A model generated the notes under the pieces. The model searched no databases. It was not told where the DNA came from and saw only the letters and a list, made by a program, of their open reading frames with translations. This document shows, piece by piece, positions 3,240 to 36,742 of a stretch of 64,000 nucleotides of DNA. The DNA comes from Escherichia coli (GTDB lineage: Bacteria; Pseudomonadota; Gammaproteobacteria; Enterobacterales; Enterobacteriaceae): assembly GCF_048403405.1 (NCBI RefSeq), contig NZ_CP183129.1. One strand, written 5' to 3'. Positions within the stretch are counted from its first letter, which is position 1. Each line of letters begins with the position of its first letter. Both the position numbers and the translations under genes were made by a program.

Positions 3240-3383
3240 TTGAGTGCAGTGAGCACATTGTTTTCCGGACGTGTCGGTGAATTTTCAAACAGTGTTTCCA
3301 GTGGAAACGCTGGATGATTTTTGAACACTGTTTCCACTGGAAACACCGGTGAATTTTTAAACACTGTTTTCCGGGGTAACACC
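3240..3383. promoter_or_regulatory. Array of about four 36-bp tandem units containing GTTTCC-N3-GGAAAC palindromes, upstream of traD; candidate operator array or oriT
   Basis: gtttccagtggaaac at 3294-3308 and gtttccactggaaac at 3330-3344, flanked by degenerate copies (ttttccggacgtg, ttttccggggtaac); related copy at 29781-29854. Confidence 0.55.
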
Positions 3384-3401
3384 AAAAAAGAGTTTGAGAG
3401 A

Positions 3402-5549
3402 ATGAGTGATCGTTATGTGATAGAGGCCTGGCTGCGACCGGCGGTGGAATTGAACAGTGCTCTGGTGTCCGGCGGGGCGGCGTTTGTGTGTGCGGTAGCG
3501 CCCTGGGCAGTGGCATTGTCTCCGTCCGTGAGTTATGTCACCGCCGGTGCGTTTGCCGGTTTTTCCGCATTGCGGGCACATCAGGGATTCCGGGTATTAC
3601 GTTACCGCCGGAATCTCCGGCGTCTGCCCCGCTATCAGGTGACGTCGGCACAGGTGCCGGTCAGCCGGCAGCGTCTGTTTCTGGGAAAAGGGTTTCAGTG
3701 GCAGCAAAAACACACGCAACGCCTGCTGGAAACCCAGCGTCCGGAAGTGGAGCGGTATGTTCAGCCGCCGGCACATTACCGGCTGGCCCGGCAGTTTGAA
3801 CTCCGTTTTGAATCCCGTTTTCCGGCGGTTTGCCGGCTTTTGCAAAAAGACAGTTGGCTGAATCCGGTCCGCCCGCTGACGCCGGTGGGGGGGAATCCGG
3901 TGTTACACGGTGTGGAGCCGGATGAGGTGAATGTGACCATGGATTTGCGTGAACGGGTTGGTCATATGCTGGTACTGGGGACCACCCGTGTCGGCAAAAC
4001 CCGTCTGGCGGAAGTGCTGATCACTCAGGATATCCGCCGGGGGAATATCACGATTGTTTTTGATCCGAAAGGGGATGCGGATTTATTGCGCCGGATGTGG
4101 GCGGAAGCGCATCGTGCGGGGCGCAGTGAGGAGTTTTATGTTTTTCACTTGGGCTGGCCTGATATCAGTGCCCGTTATAACGCCATCGGGCGTTTTGGCC
4201 GAGTATCGGAAGTCGCGGGGCGGGTTGCCGGCCAGTTATCCGGGGAAGGGAACAGCGCGGCGTTCCGGGAGTTTGCCTGGCGGTTTGTTAATATCATTGC
4301 CCGGGCACTGGTTGCTCTGGGGGAGCGTCCGGATTATGCCAAAATTTTACGTTATGTCACCAATATCGGGGAACTCTATCAGACATATTCGATGCAGGTG
4401 ATTAAAGCACAACTACCTGATTTGTTTGCCCAAATCGAGAATGCGCAGAACGCGCTGACGGTCGAGGATGTGCCCCGTCATCTGCAAAGTGATCCGAAAG
4501 CTGTGGCTATCTGGGCAACGGAGCTGGCGTTAAGTAGTGAGAAAGGGAAAAAAATCTATGATCCGATTTTGGACGGGCTGCGCAGTGCGATCCGTTATGA
4601 CCGGACCTATTTTGATAAAATAGTGGCTTCTCTGCTGCCGTTACTGGAAAAACTGACTACCGGAAAAACTGCCGCCCTGTTGTCGCCGGATTACACCAAT
4701 ATGCAGGATCCCCGTCCGATTTTTGACTGGCAGCAGGTGATTCGGAAAAAAGGGATTGTATATGTCGGGCTGGATGCGTTATCGGATGCGGAAGTGGCGG
4801 CAGCGGTGGGGAATTCCATGTTTGCGGATTTGGTCTCGGTAGCCGGGCATATTTATAAATTCGGGACTCAGGATGGACTGCCGGAGGATGAGCACGCCGG
4901 AAAATTACCGATCAGCCTGCATTGCGATGAATTTAATGAACTGATGGGGGATGAATTTATTCCGTTACTGAACAAGAGCGGCGGCGCGGGGATTGAAGTG
5001 ACGGCCTACACACAGACCTGGTCTGATATTGAAGCCCGGCTGGGGAATGCGGCGAAATCGGCGCAGGTCACCGGTAACTTTAATACGCTGGTGATGTTGC
5101 GTGTCCGTGAACTGATGACCGCGAAATTACTGACGGAACAGTTACCGGAAGTGGATATTTACACCAAAACCCTGGTATCCGGGATCACCGATATTTCCAA
5201 TCCGAGGCAGGGGAGTGATTTTACCTCCAATACCCAGGACAGGGTCAGTATGGTGGCTAAACCGCTGCTGTTACCGGCAGATATTATTCAGTTACCGAAA
5301 GGACAGGCGTTTGCGCTGCTGGAAGGCGGGAAGTTATGGAAAATCAGGATGCCCCTGCCGGCGGCAGAGGCTGATGCCCTGATGCCACCGGATTTACAAA
5401 AAATCGCACAGTATATGGAGAAAAATTACCGTACCGGCGAAACTTGGTGGACTGCGTCATCATTTTCGGATGCGCGGTATGACAGCGGCGGTATGAATGT
5501 GGCTGAGATGGCACCGGATACCGAAGGGGGCAACGATGGCAACTGCTGA
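3402..5549 (+). CDS. traD: conjugative coupling protein TraD-like (VirD4 family ATPase)
   Basis: Walker A GTTRVGKT, N-terminal TM segments, about 715 aa; start placed at MSDRYV after the repeat array with a gagag RBS. Confidence 0.85.
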   Translation: MSDRYVIEAWLRPAVELNSALVSGGAAFVCAVAPWAVALSPSVSYVTAGAFAGFSALRAHQGFRVLRYRRNLRRLPRYQVTSAQVPVSRQRLFLGKGFQWQQKHTQRLLETQRPEVERYVQPPAHYRLARQFELRFESRFPAVCRLLQKDSWLNPVRPLTPVGGNPVLHGVEPDEVNVTMDLRERVGHMLVLGTTRVGKTRLAEVLITQDIRRGNITIVFDPKGDADLLRRMWAEAHRAGRSEEFYVFHLGWPDISARYNAIGRFGRVSEVAGRVAGQLSGEGNSAAFREFAWRFVNIIARALVALGERPDYAKILRYVTNIGELYQTYSMQVIKAQLPDLFAQIENAQNALTVEDVPRHLQSDPKAVAIWATELALSSEKGKKIYDPILDGLRSAIRYDRTYFDKIVASLLPLLEKLTTGKTAALLSPDYTNMQDPRPIFDWQQVIRKKGIVYVGLDALSDAEVAAAVGNSMFADLVSVAGHIYKFGTQDGLPEDEHAGKLPISLHCDEFNELMGDEFIPLLNKSGGAGIEVTAYTQTWSDIEARLGNAAKSAQVTGNFNTLVMLRVRELMTAKLLTEQLPEVDIYTKTLVSGITDISNPRQGSDFTSNTQDRVSMVAKPLLLPADIIQLPKGQAFALLEGGKLWKIRMPLPAAEADALMPPDLQKIAQYMEKNYRTGETWWTASSFSDARYDSGGMNVAEMAPDTEGGNDGNC

Positions 5550-20602: not shown

Positions 20603-20941
20603 ATGACGAAAGGAAAAACCGGGCGCCGGTTATGGCCGGTGCTGAAAGTAACCGGGCTGACCCTGCTCAGTATGGTGGTGTTGCTGGCGGTGGCTCAGCT
20701 GGGGCTGAGTTATTACGGTGAGGCGGACAGTCTGCGCCGGGCGTTTTACCGTGCCCGCTGGTTCTGGCTGGTCTGGCGGTGTGTGTTGTACGGAGCCGTG
20801 GCGGTTGGATTATGGAAACTGTATCACCACCCGAAAGTCAGTGAGACGGCCCGGCGCAGTCTGAAGCGCAGCGGGCTGGCGATGGCCGCCTTTGTGGCGG
20901 TGAGTGAATGGTCAGTCTGGGCGGGAGGTGACGGCTTATGA
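20603..20941 (+). CDS. small ICE membrane protein
   Basis: 112 aa, three hydrophobic helices, translationally coupled. Confidence 0.45.
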   Translation: MTKGKTGRRLWPVLKVTGLTLLSMVVLLAVAQLGLSYYGEADSLRRAFYRARWFWLVWRCVLYGAVAVGLWKLYHHPKVSETARRSLKRSGLAMAAFVAVSEWSVWAGGDGL

Positions 20942-22419
20942 TGACAAACAGTTATCTCGAGTATTTTCTCACGCTGCTGGCCTGGGTGGTGAATAACGGA
21001 TTGTGGTCGGTACTGACCAGCACCGGGCTGTTTGCGCTGCCGCTGGTCTTTAAAGTGCTGGGGATCTGGCTGAAAGTGCGGGAAGAGGGGGAGGATGAGG
21101 GTAACAAAGGTTCACTGGCAATTGTGCGTATCGAGAACGCGCTTTACGGCGCCTTTGTGGTGATCCTGTTTTGTTGTGTGCCGTTGATGGAGGTGAGTGT
21201 CAGTACCCTGCAATTTGATACCAGCCGGACCAAAACCTGCGGCACCTGGACCCCGGTGAAGCCGGCGGAATCCGGTTACAGCGGCGTGGTGTCGTCACTG
21301 GATAATCAGACAGCCAAAATCCCGCTGTGGTGGATGCTGGTACATAAGCTGTCGAAAGGGGTGACTCAGGCGGCGGTGGCCAGCATTCCGTGCCGGCCGG
21401 ATTTGCGTCAGGTGCGTTTTGAGGTGCAGCACAGCAACATTAAAAATCCGGCGCTGGCTGCCGCACTTCAGGATTTTACGGATGACTGTTACTCACGTGC
21501 CCTGTATGACTGGAAAGCGAAAGATCAGGGAAAAACACAGGATGAAAAAACGTTACAGGATATCACCTGGATAGGCTCGGCCACCTTTATGAAAGGGGAA
21601 TATCATCAGATCCAGTCACGGACACCGCGGGCGGGCTTTCCCTGGGATGCCGACCGGGATGACGGGTATGCGAATGTCAACGGCAACGGTTACCCGACCT
21701 GTTATCAGTGGTGGAATGATGCGAATGCAGGGTTACTGAAACTTGTCAAAGAGCAGACCGATGAAGGGATGTGGCTGCGTGCCCGGGCGGCGATGAAGCT
21801 GATTAATAAAAACTCGAAAGAGTTTGAGGAGGCCATCGTCCGCCGGCTGGTGAGTCCGGCGAATCTGGATGTCTCCGGCGGCCGGGTATACCGGGGATAC
21901 GGGGGTAATGCGGATATGACGGTGATGAATGAGCTGGCCAGAATGGGAGGGGTAGCCGGGACTTCGCTGGCGTCACTGGGGGCATTCCCTGCCTTTGATA
22001 CGATGCGACAGTCCTTACCGATGGTGCAGGGGCTGATGTTAATGGCGGTGTATATCATGATCCCGATGGTGCTGATGTTTTCGGCGTATGAATTTAAGAC
22101 GGCGATAACGGTGACGTTTGTGATATTTGCGCTGAACTTTCTGACATTCTGGTGGGAGCTGGCACGCTGGATAGACAGCTGGATGATGGAGGCACTGTAT
22201 AATTCCGATACGCACAGTCAGTGGAATATGAACGGGCTTCAGAACACGTCTGATGATGTCATTATGAACCTGGTAATGGGAACGATGTTTTTGGTGTTGC
22301 CGGCGTTGTGGTTGACAGCATTTGGTTGGGCTGGAGCTAAAGTTGGGTCCGAGCTAGGTAATATGACATCTAACGCGACTTCACCTGCGCATAGTGCGGG
22401 GGGAAAGGAGGACAGTTAG
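20938..22419 (+). CDS. TraG-like conjugal transfer membrane protein (TraG N-terminal domain type)
   Basis: 493 aa polytopic membrane protein, last gene of the GC-rich pore block. Confidence 0.5.
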   Translation: MMTNSYLEYFLTLLAWVVNNGLWSVLTSTGLFALPLVFKVLGIWLKVREEGEDEGNKGSLAIVRIENALYGAFVVILFCCVPLMEVSVSTLQFDTSRTKTCGTWTPVKPAESGYSGVVSSLDNQTAKIPLWWMLVHKLSKGVTQAAVASIPCRPDLRQVRFEVQHSNIKNPALAAALQDFTDDCYSRALYDWKAKDQGKTQDEKTLQDITWIGSATFMKGEYHQIQSRTPRAGFPWDADRDDGYANVNGNGYPTCYQWWNDANAGLLKLVKEQTDEGMWLRARAAMKLINKNSKEFEEAIVRRLVSPANLDVSGGRVYRGYGGNADMTVMNELARMGGVAGTSLASLGAFPAFDTMRQSLPMVQGLMLMAVYIMIPMVLMFSAYEFKTAITVTFVIFALNFLTFWWELARWIDSWMMEALYNSDTHSQWNMNGLQNTSDDVIMNLVMGTMFLVLPALWLTAFGWAGAKVGSELGNMTSNATSPAHSAGGKEDS

Positions 22420-22493
22420 CAGAACAAGCTATTTCTAAAAAAGTTAACTAATAATATTTTGAAGCCAGCTGCAAAATTTAGTTTTGTGGCTGG

Positions 22494-22901
22494 CTAATCT
22501 TCGTCAATATTTATTCCGTTCATATAATATCCAAAACCTTGGTTGCCATTTCTAAAGTCGTCACTATTGCCAACGAGATTGGATTGCCATTCATTATTGT
22601 TATCAGTGGATTGAATGTTATTTCCTGAAGAAATATCAATGTGTTCTATTACAGAAAATAAAATCACCAACGCTCCAAAGGTAAATAGGATGTACAAACT
22701 GAAATAAGCCAGTAACGCGATGACTGCGAGAGTTATAGATACCAGTGGAATATGCCCCAGCCAACCCGGCATATTTTTGCTTTTGGCGCTTGCCACACAG
22801 TTCTTATCGAAAGCCTTCAATTTTTTGATTAGCCATTTTGCTTTATAAGCTGCTTTTATGCCCCAGCGTTCTCCTCTGGAAGCGGCTGTTTTATCACTCA
22901 T
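22494..22901 (-). CDS. hypothetical small membrane protein (AT-rich cargo)
   Basis: 135 aa, central long hydrophobic segment, Asn/Asp-rich tail, very low GC. Confidence 0.4.
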   Translation of the reverse strand: MSDKTAASRGERWGIKAAYKAKWLIKKLKAFDKNCVASAKSKNMPGWLGHIPLVSITLAVIALLAYFSLYILFTFGALVILFSVIEHIDISSGNNIQSTDNNNEWQSNLVGNSDDFRNGNQGFGYYMNGINIDED

Positions 22902-23243
22902 TTCCCCCTCCGGTAATCAGTGAGTCTGATTTATCTCATGCTTGTCGTCTATCGTTAATACAATTTTAGGTCGATTTTTAATCATTGTCTACATCTTGTG
23001 AGTTATGCACATATCCACGGTCACCAAGCCAGTGCAACCCGATGCCAACAAGCAATCGGGTAAACGGGAGCGTACAGGGCATCGGCCCTGATGGTGGCGG
23101 TGGGTATGTGTATAACTTTTTTGTTGCCTTCATATAAAAATCTTATTCTTTCATCTGGATGGATTTATTGAATTTGATTTTTTATGTCAGTTTAAGTAAG
23201 TTTTTAATATGTATCCGAGTCCTTGTATATAGGAGATGATAAT

Positions 23244-23543
23244 ATGAATTTTATTTTTTGGTTTGTGGTCTTAATAGGGGCGGGATATTTGTGGAGGAGG
23301 AGGGGTTGGTTCAGTAAAATAAGGAAGCAATACTCAAGGAGAAAAACAACATTAAATGGTAACAAAGGATGTTTATATAATAAAAAAAATGACAATGATG
23401 CTTTGGAAGGTAATGGGGATTGTAATAATTTTTATTCTGAGAATAAAGAAAGTTTCTTTTGGTTAATGATTGAGAGAGGTATTAAATTTTACAGAAAAGA
23501 ATATTTGACTACGATTACTGAAAAAAATATCATGATAAGTTAG
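23244..23543 (+). CDS. hypothetical small membrane protein (AT-rich cargo)
   Basis: N-terminal TM followed by basic stretch; RBS aggag 8 nt upstream of ATG 23244. Confidence 0.4.
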   Translation: MNFIFWFVVLIGAGYLWRRRGWFSKIRKQYSRRKTTLNGNKGCLYNKKNDNDALEGNGDCNNFYSENKESFFWLMIERGIKFYRKEYLTTITEKNIMIS

Positions 23544-23782
23544 TGAGCTGGTTTGGTGAGAAATGTTATATACATTGTCAGGTTAGTTTAGGGAGTTTAT
23601 TTATATTCCCAAAACAAAAAAATTTTACTGATGAAGAACAAAAACGTTTTTTTTCTGTTTGTAATAGAATGTCCTTGGATTTTATTTTAACATTTAAAAC
23701 TAATATGCCCTTCTTACGTGTTTCTGTTGACTCTATGAAAAATAAACCGCCTGTTTGGGATGTTTATGATAAATCCAAATAA
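23543..23782 (+). CDS. hypothetical small protein, overlapping previous stop
   Basis: 79-aa ORF, ATGA overlap with upstream gene suggests coupling. Confidence 0.3.
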   Translation: MSWFGEKCYIHCQVSLGSLFIFPKQKNFTDEEQKRFFSVCNRMSLDFILTFKTNMPFLRVSVDSMKNKPPVWDVYDKSK

Positions 23783-23957
23783 AAACATATCTGATTGTTG
23801 AGTTTTCGTGATTAAAGATGGCATTGATTATTAATACGATGAAGAACCAACAAGGGGATATTTAATAAAGAGAAAAAGGAGGATGTAAAATATTCTCCTT
23901 TTTCTTTATCGGGTATTGACGAAAAAAGAAAGTTTGATTAAATTTACCACGTTACAC

Positions 23958-24176
23958 CGTTGCTTAATGCAACATTGCCAATGCTTCGGTTGTCTGAGAG
24001 AAGCGCCTACGGGTGACAACAATGCCAATCCGGCAATCTGAGAGGAACGCCTACGGGTGATTGCCACTGCCAATCCTCGGGTCATCTGAGACGAGGGCCT
24101 ACGGGCGATGACAGAACTCCGTTCGTCCTTGAAATCGACGGAGGGTGATAACAGAATAGCGTTATCATCAGGATTA
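23958..24176 (+). repeat. Structured direct repeat copy 1 (three tandem hairpin units plus two further hairpins)
   Basis: Near-identical to 26392-26612; three about 45-nt units with stems gttgtc/gacaac, ggcaatc/gattgcc, gtcatc/gatgac around a conserved loop tgaga..gcctacggg. Confidence 0.8.
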
Positions 24177-24389
24177 ACTGCACTTCAGTGACCATGTCAC
24201 AGCTATCCGGTCACTCGGATATCCACAAAAAAGCAGAGTATGCGATAACGTGTATCTGCCTCTTCTGATGTGTTCTGACGAATACGTCCTGCTTTCTGCA
24301 ACCTTTGTATGCCCGGTATGACGCGTTTCCATTGCGCAGCTTTGGAAAGCGGCATCTTCGGAGCAATACATTGAGCAGCAGAATGATGG

Positions 24390-24436
24390 GCGTGCGTCAC
24401 TTTCGTCAAGTGAAACGAAGACAAAGTGACGCACGC
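24390..24436. promoter_or_regulatory. Long imperfect palindrome upstream of the recombinase-like gene
   Basis: gcgtgcgtcactttcgtc ... gacaaagtgacgcacgc, about 17-bp arms, no flanking T-run. Confidence 0.4.
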
Positions 24437-24824
24437 AAGTGCATACGCTCAGAACGCTTCAATACTGGTCTTACAGCAAAACTGACAATCTGACAGACAT
24501 GTAATGCATTGCTCAGAACGGCTGAAAGTCTTTCAACGCTCAACGTTTATATGATGATAAAAACGTATAACATTATGAAAAAAGGAGAAAAAACGACACG
24601 ATACCAAGGCGACGTCAGGAAACTGACGGACGGAGGTGCCCTGATAACGGGGGCCGGTCTGATGACCGCAAACAGTTCAGAGAACTGATTTGATACCTCT
24701 CAACAACTCAACCTTTTATCGCCCCGGTGCTCAGGTATCTGTCAGGTCGCAGGATGCGCAATATAAAACCGTCGCGCCGGGAAAAGGTAACCAGTTGAGA
24801 GCGAAAGAGGCGGAGAATCAGAGA

Positions 24825-25733
24825 ATGTCCAGAAGAGCAAAAGCCCTGTCCCGTGAAATGCATATCCTTGCACGTCAGGCCGGAGGGAGCTTTAAAACCA
24901 TTGCAGACCGGGTCAAAATTGCAGAACGGGTTGCGGCAGAGCTGGCCGGGTTGAATATTCAGATACGATCTGTTGAGCAACTGAAATCCCGCCATATTGA
25001 AATGTATATCCATGCCCGCAGAGAACAGAATATCAGTTTACGCAGCTGTCAAAACGAAATGTCGGCTATCCGGGCGATATTTCGTGTTGCCGGACGTCAT
25101 AAACTGGCTGACCCTAAACATGAGCGCCTCAGTAATGAGGCGCTGGGGCTTTCAGGTGCCAGCAGGGCTGGCACCCGTACCGCGATATCGGACGAGCGCT
25201 TTCACGAAGCGCTCGCTCGGATTGAGCCTTATGATCAGGGGGTGGCATTAACTATGCAGTTATCCCGTAGTCTGGGATTGAGAAATGAAGAAGCCGTGCA
25301 GTCAGTAAAATCATTACGGACCTGGCAACAGGCGCTTAAAAACGGTAAAGATCGCGTTCATGTGGTTTTTGGGACAAAAGGAGGCAGACCCCGTGAAGCA
25401 TTAGTGCCGGATAAAGCCCGTGTATTAACATTAATTAATAAAGCCATTGAATATGCGGATAAACATAACGGTTATTTAATTAATCGTCCGTCATTACATT
25501 CTGCCAAAGATCGTTATATTAATGTGATGCGACGGATAGGCGGATTTATTCACGAAGAATCAAATCATGGTTTACGGTATGCCTATGCTCAGGATGTTGA
25601 AAAATATTATCTCAGTCAGGGATTCAGTCAAAAGGAAGCCTATGCATTAACCTCCATGGATTTAGGGCATGGTGACGGTCGTGGCGATTATATTAAACGG
25701 GTTTATAGTCAGAAAGGAGATATTGAGGAATAA
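24825..25733 (+). CDS. tyrosine recombinase-like protein (integrase-fold)
   Basis: Motifs in canonical order: LGLRNEE (Arg), HGLRYAYA (HxxR), LGHGDGRGDYIKRVY (candidate Tyr nucleophile); start taken at ATG 24825 after aagaggcggaga, though the ORF could extend to 24690. Confidence 0.5.
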   Translation: MSRRAKALSREMHILARQAGGSFKTIADRVKIAERVAAELAGLNIQIRSVEQLKSRHIEMYIHARREQNISLRSCQNEMSAIRAIFRVAGRHKLADPKHERLSNEALGLSGASRAGTRTAISDERFHEALARIEPYDQGVALTMQLSRSLGLRNEEAVQSVKSLRTWQQALKNGKDRVHVVFGTKGGRPREALVPDKARVLTLINKAIEYADKHNGYLINRPSLHSAKDRYINVMRRIGGFIHEESNHGLRYAYAQDVEKYYLSQGFSQKEAYALTSMDLGHGDGRGDYIKRVYSQKGDIEE

Positions 25734-34549: not shown

Positions 34550-35620
34550 ATGAAAGATAATCACAGTTCTGATGAACATCAGCAGAAAGTGGATGTATGG
34601 GAGCAAATGCTGAGTAATTACTTTTACAATAAAGTATTACGGCCGGATACGGAGAAAACATACCGTAAGATGGTACGTCTTTTTCTGCGTTATTGCGGAG
34701 TTTGTGAAAATGCGTTACCGCTACCGGATGAAGTGACACATGAGCATGTGCTGAGATGGCGAAGAAATGAGCTGAATATTCAGAAAGTCCGGGAACGGAC
34801 ATGGAACACAAAAACCAGGCATATGCAGTCTCTGTATAATTATTGGATCAAAAAAGGGATTGTTTCACTTAAAGAAAACCCGTTCTCAGAAACACAAATT
34901 GAACCGGGTGAAAAACAGAAAAAAGTCTATACACAATCACAACTGAGAACGATTTATCGTATTCTGGAACAATTTCAGCAACAGGAAAATATGCTGCCAC
35001 CTGATCAGGCTCACTTTCAGGCATGTGCGGTTTATCCCACTCGATTCTGGTTTGCTGTGCTGGAAACGCTGAGGCTGACGGCTATTCGTTTTAACCAGCT
35101 GATTAACCTGCATATTGGCGATCTGGATTTTGAGGAGTGTACGATCACATTGCGCAGTGAAAGCAGTAAAAATCACCGGGAATATCAGATTGCTTTTGTT
35201 CAGCCACTACGTTGTTTACTGGCGCCCTTGGTTGAGGAAATGCGTTGTCACGGGGCGGATAAAAACGATATTTTGTTTGATGTTCATCGTCTTTATCATA
35301 AACGACTATCCCGCTCTGAAACTCCACTCAGTCAGACGATACGTTCTTTTTTCCGTCGTTTATCAAAGGAATGTGGATTTCATGTCAGTCCCCATCGTTT
35401 CAGACATACACTGGCGACGACATTAATGAAACATCCTGAACGTAATATGCAATTGACGAAACAGATGTTAGGACACCGTAGTCTCTCTTCAACTATGGAA
35501 TATATTGCTCTGGATGCATACAGTACAGTCAGGATCTTGGAGAATGAGTTAGGTGAGTTTTTAACAATGGGATTAGGTGGTGAACTTACAAGGCTAGCAT
35601 CAAAAAGACAGAGGATGTGA
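34550..35620 (+). CDS. int: tyrosine site-specific integrase (ICE integrase)
   Basis: C-terminal catalytic region HRFRHTLAT ... LGHRSLSSTMEYI; RBS gcaggagg; adjacent to tRNA-Phe. Confidence 0.85.
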   Translation: MKDNHSSDEHQQKVDVWEQMLSNYFYNKVLRPDTEKTYRKMVRLFLRYCGVCENALPLPDEVTHEHVLRWRRNELNIQKVRERTWNTKTRHMQSLYNYWIKKGIVSLKENPFSETQIEPGEKQKKVYTQSQLRTIYRILEQFQQQENMLPPDQAHFQACAVYPTRFWFAVLETLRLTAIRFNQLINLHIGDLDFEECTITLRSESSKNHREYQIAFVQPLRCLLAPLVEEMRCHGADKNDILFDVHRLYHKRLSRSETPLSQTIRSFFRRLSKECGFHVSPHRFRHTLATTLMKHPERNMQLTKQMLGHRSLSSTMEYIALDAYSTVRILENELGEFLTMGLGGELTRLASKRQRM

Positions 35621-35637
35621 TATAAATAAAAAATATT

Positions 35638-35671
35638 TACACAAAGTTGACTATTTTATCAACTTTGTGTA
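35638..35671. promoter_or_regulatory. Perfect 13-bp inverted repeat downstream of int (terminator or integrase/att-associated site)
   Basis: tacacaaagttga ctatttta tcaactttgtgta; a second hairpin aagggtgtt/aacaccctt lies at 35690-35714. Confidence 0.4.
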
Positions 35672-35853
35672 TAAGCTGGATTTGATTGAGAAGGGTGTTC
35701 TAGGAAAACACCCTTACTTGATAAATCATTGTCAACCACGTGAGAAGTCATGAACGTGATTACAACTGAAATTCAAGTTTTAACCGAGCGTTGGAGATCT
35801 CACTTCCAGCGACCGTGCTAGGGAAACGGTTACACCATTTCCGAAAGGAAAGA

Positions 35854-35929
35854 TGGTGCCCGGACTCGGAATCGAACCAAGGACACGGGGATTTTCAATC
35901 CCCTGCTCTACCGACTGAGCTATCCGGGC
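35854..35929 (-). tRNA. pheV: tRNA-Phe (GAA anticodon)
   Basis: Reverse complement reads GCCCGGATAGCTCAGTCGGTAGAGCAGGGGATTGAAAATCCCCGTGTCCTTGGTTCGATTCCGAGTCCGGGCACCA, the canonical E. coli tRNA-Phe, 76 nt with CCA. Confidence 0.95.
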
Positions 35930-36034
35930 AACGGGGCGCATTAAACCTGATTCGCCTCGTCTCGTCAATCAAATTTCTTCAATTTAGTGCAGACTGCACA
36001 ATCTATCATCACTTTGCCGCTATTGCACGCATTG

Positions 36035-36742
36035 TCAGGCAAACCAGGCGGTCCAGGCGGCGGAAAGCGGCATTGCCAGAAGGAGTGCTGGAAGCATGTT
36101 GACCACCGGGAACATTTTAATGCCACAGATGCGTAATCCGGTTGCCAGCAGCAATAAACCGCCTACGGCGCTGAAGTCTGCCATCATCGACGGTGTGGTC
36201 AGCGGTAATATCAGCGCGGCAGCCCACGCCAGCGTTAACTGGATGATCAGTAATGGAATGCTAATCACCGACACCGCAATACCCAGCGAGCAGGCGAAGA
36301 TCATCGCCGTAAAGAAATCAAGAAATGACTTGGCGATTAAAATACTTGGATCGCCGGTCATCCCTTCGTTCATCGCCCCGAAGATTCCGGTGCCGCTGGC
36401 GCAAAACAGGACAATAATCGCGACAAAATTCTGAATAAAAGATTCATGCGCTGGCTTCTTACGCGAGTGGTGAAACAGATTATGCGCTTTGGCGACCACT
36501 GTATTGACGCCTTTTTCCAGCAGACAAATTTCGCCGATTAATGCTCCGAGTAAGGTTGCTAAAACCATCGCCGGAAGGTTGGCGCATTTCACCACCAGTA
36601 AAATACCAATCCCCAGCGATGCCAGACCAAAAATTGATGTCATGGAGACGCGGATACGTTCCGGTAAGCGTTGGCTAAGGAGTGCGCCGAAAACGCCACC
36701 CAGTAAGACTGCACTTGCGTTGATAAAAGGGCCGATGACCAC
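36035..36742 (-). CDS. yqgA: DUF554 family inner membrane protein YqgA
   Basis: 235-aa polytopic membrane protein in the conserved pheV-yqgA-speC arrangement. Confidence 0.8.

Follow-up and report, generated by a model that had tools for sequence, protein, structure and literature searches.

Gene content of the region after traG

The stretch of DNA analysed here, hereafter the window, comprises 64,000 nt of an Escherichia coli chromosome (NCBI RefSeq assembly GCF_048403405.1, contig NZ_CP183129.1) and carries an ICEPm1-type integrative and conjugative element (ICE) at the tRNA-Phe gene pheV. We examined positions 22420 to 23782, directly after the transfer gene traG, which a first-pass annotation had described as a trio of small membrane-protein genes with possible entry-exclusion, toxin or abortive-infection products. 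The listing of open reading frames (ORFs) bore out the basic layout, with one ORF on the minus strand and two overlapping ORFs on the plus strand:

22494-22901, minus strand: ORF1, 135 aa
23244-23543, plus strand: ORF2, 99 aa from its ATG (the listed ORF begins at a TTG at 23223)
23543-23782, plus strand: ORF3, 79 aa, with a GTG start that overlaps the TAG of ORF2 by 1 nt

The rise in AT content after traG was also as described. GC content is 0.57-0.65 upstream of traG, 0.54 within it, 0.385 in ORF1 and 0.29 in ORF2 and ORF3. The claim that each product has a single hydrophobic helix holds for ORF1, which has one long segment (residues ~53-86), but not for ORF3, which has no membrane-like segment (peak 19-residue Kyte-Doolittle mean 0.86); ORF2 has merely a 17-residue N-terminal anchor. 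Scans of the three ORFs and of a 51-aa minus-strand ORF (22978-23133) with Pfam, NCBIfam and PADLOC returned only DUF3742 and a weak DUF2726 match. The 51-aa ORF is not a gene: its start is lost in three relatives (L007-L009) and nearby indels are 4-6 nt long.

The stretch holds two unrelated things, a real backbone gene (ORF1) and a wrecked cargo gene (ORF2 and ORF3) in a variable slot, and the two differ in evolutionary status. Of these gene identities, and of the pseudogene call, we are highly confident. The same trio had been proposed as something to look for in other elements; homologs of ORF1 are indeed found there, and the counterpart of ORF2 and ORF3 is one intact gene in some relatives and the same wreck in others.

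Positions 22420-23900 match the E. coli CRE287 chromosome at 100% identity. RefSeq annotates an ICE around that locus: it has transfer genes of the TIGR037xx type, the adhesin gene taaP, genes for a TraG_N protein and a relaxase, and an integrase gene adjoining tRNA-Phe. In this annotation the tRNA-Phe integration, the TIGR037xx transfer genes and taaP mark an element of the type of ICEPm1, described from Proteus mirabilis (PMC11278526). Across 20938-24800 only 6-7 positions differ from the copies in P. mirabilis ATCC 29906 and Providencia stuartii NCTC11800. The tRNA-Phe site, taaP and the near-identical Proteus and Providencia copies are what the window has in common with ICEPm1 (and with ICEPm2 and ICEPm3); it differs from ICEPm1 of P. 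mirabilis in lying at pheV in an E. coli chromosome and in having a traG frameshift of its own. ICEPm1 and its relatives share ICEclc-type transfer genes. Plasmid searches with the locus region gave no match.

ORF1 encodes a DUF3742 protein of the element backbone

ORF1 is a genuine backbone gene of ICEPm1-type conjugative elements and belongs to the DUF3742 family, after which RefSeq names its product. The match of ORF1 to Pfam PF12553 (26.5 bits) falls just under the cutoff of 27.2; a protein 99% identical to it (P0004) has a precomputed PF12553 match. The other three Pfam matches of ORF1 were far under their cutoffs, leaving DUF3742 as the sole noteworthy one. The ORF calls had been rated as weak, a caution that does not apply to ORF1. 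Its homologs form 34 protein clusters in Enterobacterales, and a GGAGG ribosome-binding site (22907-22911) lies 6 nt 5' of the ATG. The ratio of nonsynonymous to synonymous substitution rates (dN/dS) was 0.17-0.28 for codons 1-85 compared with four relatives, showing that ORF1 is under purifying selection. A scan of the genome contigs with the DUF3742 alignment recovered only 2 loci, its peptide patterns being too specific.

DUF3742 (PF12553) is an uncharacterised family found beside traG in ICEs of the ICEclc/PFGI-1 type, and ORF1 resembles its members in sequence, in size (~125-140 aa) and in its position convergent with the TraG_N gene. The two genes converge in every fetched locus long enough to show it, and the same arrangement is present in ICEs of Pseudomonas syringae (PMC8895235). 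The stop codons of ORF1 and traG are 75 nt apart in the window and 43 nt apart in copies without its private traG frameshift. A full-text literature search for "DUF3742" brought up three papers, of which PMC8895235 has the family only as an entry in an annotation table, and no published function is known to us. One of the ORF1 clusters (P0216) is a 113-aa DUF3742 variant on 297 contigs with a different N-terminus (MANQKLKAFDK...), which may be an alternative start call or the result of an upstream lesion.

The ORF1 protein consists of a basic N-terminal part of 52 residues (net +9), a hydrophobic segment of ~33 residues and an acidic tail (net -7), and is predicted to be a small inner-membrane protein with a cytoplasmic N-terminus and one helix. 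The tail is variable, yet it ends in a conserved Gly/aromatic motif (alignment A2). An AlphaFold model of DUF3742 is of low confidence (predicted local distance difference test score, pLDDT, 59.8); it has a single continuous helix over the hydrophobic segment and a disordered tail (pLDDT <50), and was used merely as a weak hint of one long helix. A candidate promoter was found by consensus scan and alignment:

22963-22991, minus strand: sigma-70-like promoter for ORF1 (TAGACA, 17-nt spacer, TAAAAT)

Judging from this match, ORF1 probably has its own promoter, with transcription running towards traG. Conservation of the 100 nt next to ORF1 extends to elements in which the structured element described below is missing.

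The C-terminal tails of TraG and DUF3742 change together

The traG product is a VirB6-like TraG_N protein (Pfam match 259 bits). Its 3' end and that of ORF1 face each other across a short intergenic hairpin:

22312-22419, plus strand: variable C-terminal tail of TraG, directly past the last membrane helix (...PALW, residue 458)
22463-22495, no strand: hairpin between the convergent traG and DUF3742 genes (inverted repeat I7, 14-nt arms, 86% complementary)
22497-22645, minus strand: type-A C-terminal tail of DUF3742, which forms one replaceable patch with 22312-22419 and the hairpin

The hairpin overlaps the ORF1 stop codon and is probably a bidirectional terminator. When the window was compared with one relative (L002), identity was 97-100% except across 22312-22645, where it dropped to 52-65%. 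This divergent patch corresponds exactly to the TraG tail, the hairpin and the DUF3742 tail, so that its limits run from just past the last TraG membrane helix (residue 458) to the end of the DUF3742 hydrophobic segment.

We compared the tails across 15 loci, taking the last 200 residues before the tail as the TraG core. Core identity was 74-100%, and the TraG tails and the DUF3742 tails sorted into the same ~6-7 discrete types. The identity matrices of the two tails were correlated (Mantel rho 0.63, p = 0.0002), in contrast to those of the TraG core and the DUF3742 tail (rho 0.09). L002 and L005 have near-identical backbones and different tail types, whereas L002 and L018 have diverged backbones and a common tail type. 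The tail types thus switch together, independently of the backbone; the association is a correlative one and is confounded by physical linkage. The pattern fits that of the specificity regions in the TraG/Eex and TraG/TraS exclusion pairs, an analogy that is weighed below.

The end of traG at 22419, reported in the first-pass annotation as the end of the operon, is correct for the window but not for other copies, the stop there being private to the window and CRE287. A 1-nt deletion (AAGGGAGG to AAGGAGG, 22397-22398) common to these two chromosomes cuts TraG to 493 aa. The missing G is present in three other E. coli loci (L004-L006), where TraG is annotated at 504 aa and therefore ends at window-equivalent position 22451, 32 nt further on, and the Proteus and Providencia copies also keep it. 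Either a genuine mutation or a mistake in assembly could account for the deletion, which changes nothing but the last residues of this variable tail.

ORF2 and ORF3 are the remains of one DUF2726 gene

ORF2 and ORF3 had been taken as separate genes. They are pieces of a single frameshifted and internally deleted gene, a pseudogene of a membrane-anchored DUF2726 cargo gene that is hitch-hiking on a successful element:

23244-23782, plus strand: DUF2726 pseudogene; ORF2 is the N-terminal anchor, the linker and the start of the domain, and ORF3 is the remaining domain without its core
23521-23527, plus strand: A7 homopolymer (A8 in intact genes), the site of the frameshift in DNA alignment A1
23697-23705, plus strand: junction left by the in-frame loss of 102 bp between two direct repeats of AAACTAATA (alignment A1)
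23871-23905, plus strand: hairpin with a T-run behind it (inverted repeat I6, 93% complementary), also in L002; a probable terminator for the DUF2726 gene

The joined sequence of ORF2 and ORF3, used as one query, retrieved two intact proteins. P0001 has 213 aa and 78% identity, P0002 has 212 aa, and both have 100% query cover and a PF10881 domain. Their genes stand in the same order as in the window: TraG_N, DUF3742 on the opposite strand, then DUF2726. The frame switched at 23522-23525 in tblastn, and the change from A8 to A7 creates both the stop of ORF2 and the apparent start of ORF3, an internal valine codon in the intact gene. For ORF3, then, the low rating given to the ORF calls was justified, as its GTG start also lacks a ribosome-binding site; ORF2 retains one (AGGAG, 23231-23235). 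The 102-bp deletion takes out 34 aa (NNNIICIIELDDESHNREDRKKRDDMLNYLMTET). Of the 11 invariant or near-invariant DUF2726 columns in a 40-sequence alignment, eight are lost with it (E162, L163, D164, D165, H168, R173, R176 and D177 in P0001 numbering) and E93, L100 and D146 are left in the window copy. Against PF10881, P0001 and P0002 scored 70.8-74.9 bits, ORF3 scored 13.6 (cutoff 24.7) and ORF2 gave no match. Because ORF3 falls under the cutoff that its intact homologs far exceed, we regard the window copy as a remnant of a DUF2726 member and not as a member. Most likely it yields no functional protein.

All the other copies that we examined share the two lesions: those in E. coli L004-L006, on two metagenome contigs and in Proteus and Providencia. 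Sequences identical to ORF2 and ORF3 are found on ~1000 contigs, which come from Morganella, Proteus, Providencia, Klebsiella and E. coli. Some copies have decayed further. In E. coli CM IVRI KOL-1 (L006, 2563-3287) an insertion sequence, ISEc75 of the IS1595 family, lies inside the ORF2 part at window-equivalent position 23482, and another E. coli copy has extra homopolymer indels in the pseudogene. The A-tract at 23521-23527 is one base shorter in L004, and a second poly-A tract (23376-23383) differs in length by one base in L004 and in L006. Slippage or sequencing noise may underlie such variation. In a 178-aa protein (P0195) the frame is restored, with a tract of ~5 A's by back-translation, and the core is still missing. 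Phase variation of the A-tract as a functional switch was considered and rejected, every variant being without the core.

DUF2726 is a large family (1976 representative proteins at E <= 0.001), most of whose members have an N-terminal hydrophobic anchor. It has been assigned a restriction-endonuclease fold in the PD-(D/E)XK superfamily, grouped with the Vsr and DUF559 endonucleases, and tied to mobile elements and defence-type fusions (PMC3424549, PMC3710099). P0001 and P0002 share with DUF2726 (PF10881) the D...ELDD..H...R..RD motif and the N-terminal membrane anchor; the window copy differs in being frameshifted and in having lost the core motif. The AlphaFold model of P0001 (pLDDT 86) gave top Foldseek ranks that were mostly restriction endonucleases, TnsA, the RE-like 3ijm and I-Bth0305I, a Vsr-like homing endonuclease; these matches were weak, with a single one at E < 0.001 and low TM-scores. 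A PDB sequence search with P0001 found nothing significant, and PADLOC had no match for ORF1-3, the 51-aa ORF, intact P0001 or intact P0002. The intact DUF2726 protein may have a nuclease or defence role.

The pseudogene lies in a region that differs from one element to another:

23125-23913, no strand: variable AT-rich cargo slot between the DUF3742 leader with the structured element and the STAXI motif

The backbone is conserved to ~23124 and resumes at 23914. One relative (L026) matches the window to 23122 and again from 23914, with different cargo between. The slot holds an intact DUF2726 gene with an AcrVA2-like gene in some relatives; in others we found Gabija-like genes (DUF2813/OLD-TOPRIM and UvrD helicase), ShlB-type contact-dependent inhibition genes, two VapBC pairs and AraC/GyrI-like genes. 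The position beside DUF3742 is a cargo hotspot, as seen in the window, L012-L019 and L026-L030. Among such neighbours, it is plausible that the intact DUF2726 protein serves in defence or competition.

A possible role of the linked tails in entry exclusion

The explanation that we consider best overall, with a probability of roughly 0.55, is that ORF1 is a backbone gene whose product is a partner of TraG, and that ORF2 and ORF3 are the wreck of a cargo gene. In the mechanism that we propose, DUF3742 would interact physically with TraG, the VirB6-like channel protein, and the two C-terminal tails would form a type-specific recognition pair. A cell holding the element would display the DUF3742 tail and would block donors with a TraG tail of matching type, in the mode of TraG/Eex (SXT/R391, IncC) or TraG/TraS (F). 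That the tails of TraG and DUF3742 serve type-specific entry exclusion or self-recognition in ICEPm1-type elements, and possibly in all ICEclc-type elements, is a tentative proposal drawn from these analogies, and we would not claim even odds for it.

The exclusion gene adjoins traG in SXT/R391, IncA/IncC and F-like systems. In the TraG/Eex pairs of SXT/R391 and IncA/IncC and the TraG/TraS pairs of F-like plasmids, a small inner-membrane protein works with TraG, and the short variable regions that confer specificity are found in both proteins and set the exclusion groups (PMC5812530, PMC11493245). ORF1 likewise encodes a predicted small inner-membrane protein beside traG, with a variable region that co-varies with TraG. 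The two cases also differ. DUF3742 has no sequence homology to the known exclusion proteins, the TraG here is a short TraG_N-only form of ~500 aa, and the gene is convergent with traG and not co-directional. The entry-exclusion guess of the first-pass annotation stays viable for ORF1, with circumstantial support from the tail co-variation, but not for ORF2 or ORF3. Its wider picture of a trio of small membrane effectors, toxin and abortive infection included, is not supported, as PADLOC, NCBIfam and Pfam had no toxin or defence match and ORF2 and ORF3 are remnants.

Published data from two relatives can be set beside the proposal. In ICEclc of Pseudomonas knackmussii B13, the genes orf52324-orf53196 lie on the opposite strand and converge on the TraG_N gene orf53587, as DUF3742 does; they have their own promoter and are expressed in anti-phase to the transfer genes. 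The opposite-strand transcript beside traG (orf52324-53196) was down in stationary phase (log2 ratio -1.2) and the traG operon was up (+4.2) (PMC2892462). Among 99 P. mirabilis genomes, ICEPm1 and ICEPm3 were found to co-reside and same-type pairs were never seen (PMC11278526). Both the anti-phase expression and the lack of same-type pairs fit the exclusion idea and, if it is true, exclusion would account for the co-residence in Proteus of ICEPm elements that differ in type and for the lack of same-type pairs.

Several points weigh against this interpretation. The F-type TraG C-terminal domain that carries exclusion specificity is missing from the TraG encoded here, and in scans with Pfam and NCBIfam DUF3742 showed no homology to an exclusion protein already known. 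The 3' ends of the two genes abut and one recombination tract carries both tails, so linkage by itself could give rise to their co-variation. Both tails look disordered in prediction, and weak constraint may contribute. The authors of the P. mirabilis survey credit the missing same-type pairs to selection and not to exclusion (PMC11278526). The orf53196 gene of ICEclc is set beside DUF3742 by position and expression, not by sequence, and the ICEclc cluster has three genes where the window has one. E. coli 2547 (NZ_CP072980.1) holds two elements, at 1.476 Mb (pheU) and 5.178 Mb (pheV) (loci L031 and L032), with identical DUF3742 proteins and the same type-A tail. This pair could have arisen by re-integration inside one cell, without entry from outside. 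As for the pseudogene, a residual non-catalytic function may remain, given the persistence of the sequence on ~1000 contigs and the frame-restored P0195. In the second element of E. coli 2547, traG and another transfer gene are annotated as frameshifted.

The alternative that survives best is that DUF3742 acts within its own cell, as a subunit or a regulator of transfer, its tail binding the matching tail of the donor TraG, perhaps to gate or assemble the channel, with no role in exclusion. The tail co-variation applies equally to such a protein. In ICEclc, moreover, a deletion of traG (orf53587) could not be complemented, and its authors suspected a polar effect (PMC10018362); their type IV secretion deletion series began at the TraG_N gene, with the convergent neighbour outside it (PMC10018362). 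We nonetheless consider this account possible but improbable. The gene is on the opposite strand with its own putative promoter, the anti-phase expression of the ICEclc opposite-strand cluster would be odd for a structural subunit, and there is no obvious reason why a subunit should have discrete, exchangeable tail types.

Another alternative holds that the patch is a neutral recombination hotspot in which chance swaps occur at convergent 3' ends, DUF3742 having some unrelated membrane function. It is favoured by the physical adjacency of the two tails, by the predicted disorder of the tail and by frequent recombination in the adjoining cargo slot. Three observations lead us to think it unlikely: the patch limits fall, in every type, where each of the two proteins passes from membrane to solvent, the tail keeps its conserved Gly/aromatic end motif, and tail types stay 80-100% identical on backbones that differ by up to 40% in the N-terminal part of DUF3742.

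Lastly, it is very improbable that ORF2, ORF3 or both encode a working small protein with a toxin, abortive-infection or exclusion function, turned on and off perhaps through the poly-A tract: their exact sequences are widespread and RefSeq lists both as coding sequences, the A-tract varies in length with one variant restoring the frame, and ORF2 retains a ribosome-binding site and a membrane anchor, but both align end to end with a single intact gene, every copy including P0195 has lost the core motif, ORF3 has neither a ribosome-binding site nor a hydrophobic helix, other copies are further broken by an insertion sequence and indels, there are no family matches, and hitch-hiking on a successful element accounts for the wide spread.

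Non-coding features and neighbouring genes

At the left edge of the cargo slot lies a structured non-coding element:

23001-23117 (117 nt, with TTTTTTG running to 23124), no strand: structured non-coding element bounded by inverted repeat I1 with 26-nt imperfect arms

The arms close a multi-hairpin core, and TTTTTTG follows directly on the plus strand. The predicted folding energy of the plus-strand RNA was -71.1 kcal/mol (z = -6.3 against shuffled controls); for the minus-strand RNA z was -3.5. The element shows 92% identity or more among 7 variants and in 25 E. coli genomes, none of which has it annotated; the more distant relatives in the alignment lack it. Rfam has no family for 23001-23117. 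A covariation test on the 7 variants, which are at least 92% identical, found no compensatory pair, the structure coming from thermodynamics alone. The element had no match in the plasmid searches or in a viral-contig scan. A terminator or insulator, a small RNA, and a DNA site such as oriT are candidates for what it is. An attC-like reading was discarded, as the GTTAT...ATAAC ends are opposite in arrangement to the R''/R' boxes of integrons.

Beyond the slot, matches to the RNA motifs STAXI (RF01728; 23958-24115, 112.1 bits, Rfam threshold 40.5) and EFASI (RF02957; 24593-24744, 78.1 bits, threshold 51.2) precede an integrase-domain gene (24690-25733, PF12834/PF12835), and the order is the same in L026. 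STAXI and EFASI, with ArdC further on, may mark the leading region of the element. Two observations concern other parts of the window. Positions 34600-36700, which cover the integrase, tRNA-Phe and yqgA junction, are 100% identical to GN02323 and 99.0% identical to CRE287. The coupling-protein gene traD (3321-5549) is labelled "frameshifted" in CRE287; in the window it is a single ORF of 742 aa with a TTG start.

Implications

The flagged stretch proves to be ordinary, a backbone gene of a known family next to a pseudogene, and the first-pass annotation was partly mistaken. One small and real gain is a correction, since RefSeq lists the dead DUF2726 gene as two hypothetical proteins on about a thousand contigs. 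The linked tails of TraG and DUF3742 are a modest, new and testable lead. No exclusion determinant for the ICEPm1/ICEclc-type family was found in the literature examined, and a 2017 ICE review consulted here describes no exclusion system for the ICEclc-ICEHin1056 family (PMC5812530). The tail hypothesis narrows the search to one pair of segments of ~45-50 residues, in TraG and DUF3742. ICEclc-type elements spread virulence, catabolic and resistance genes among Proteus, Pseudomonas, Klebsiella and E. coli. If the hypothesis is true, the tail types (A in ICEPm1, E in ICEPm2, and B, C, D and F) would be the exclusion groups of these elements.

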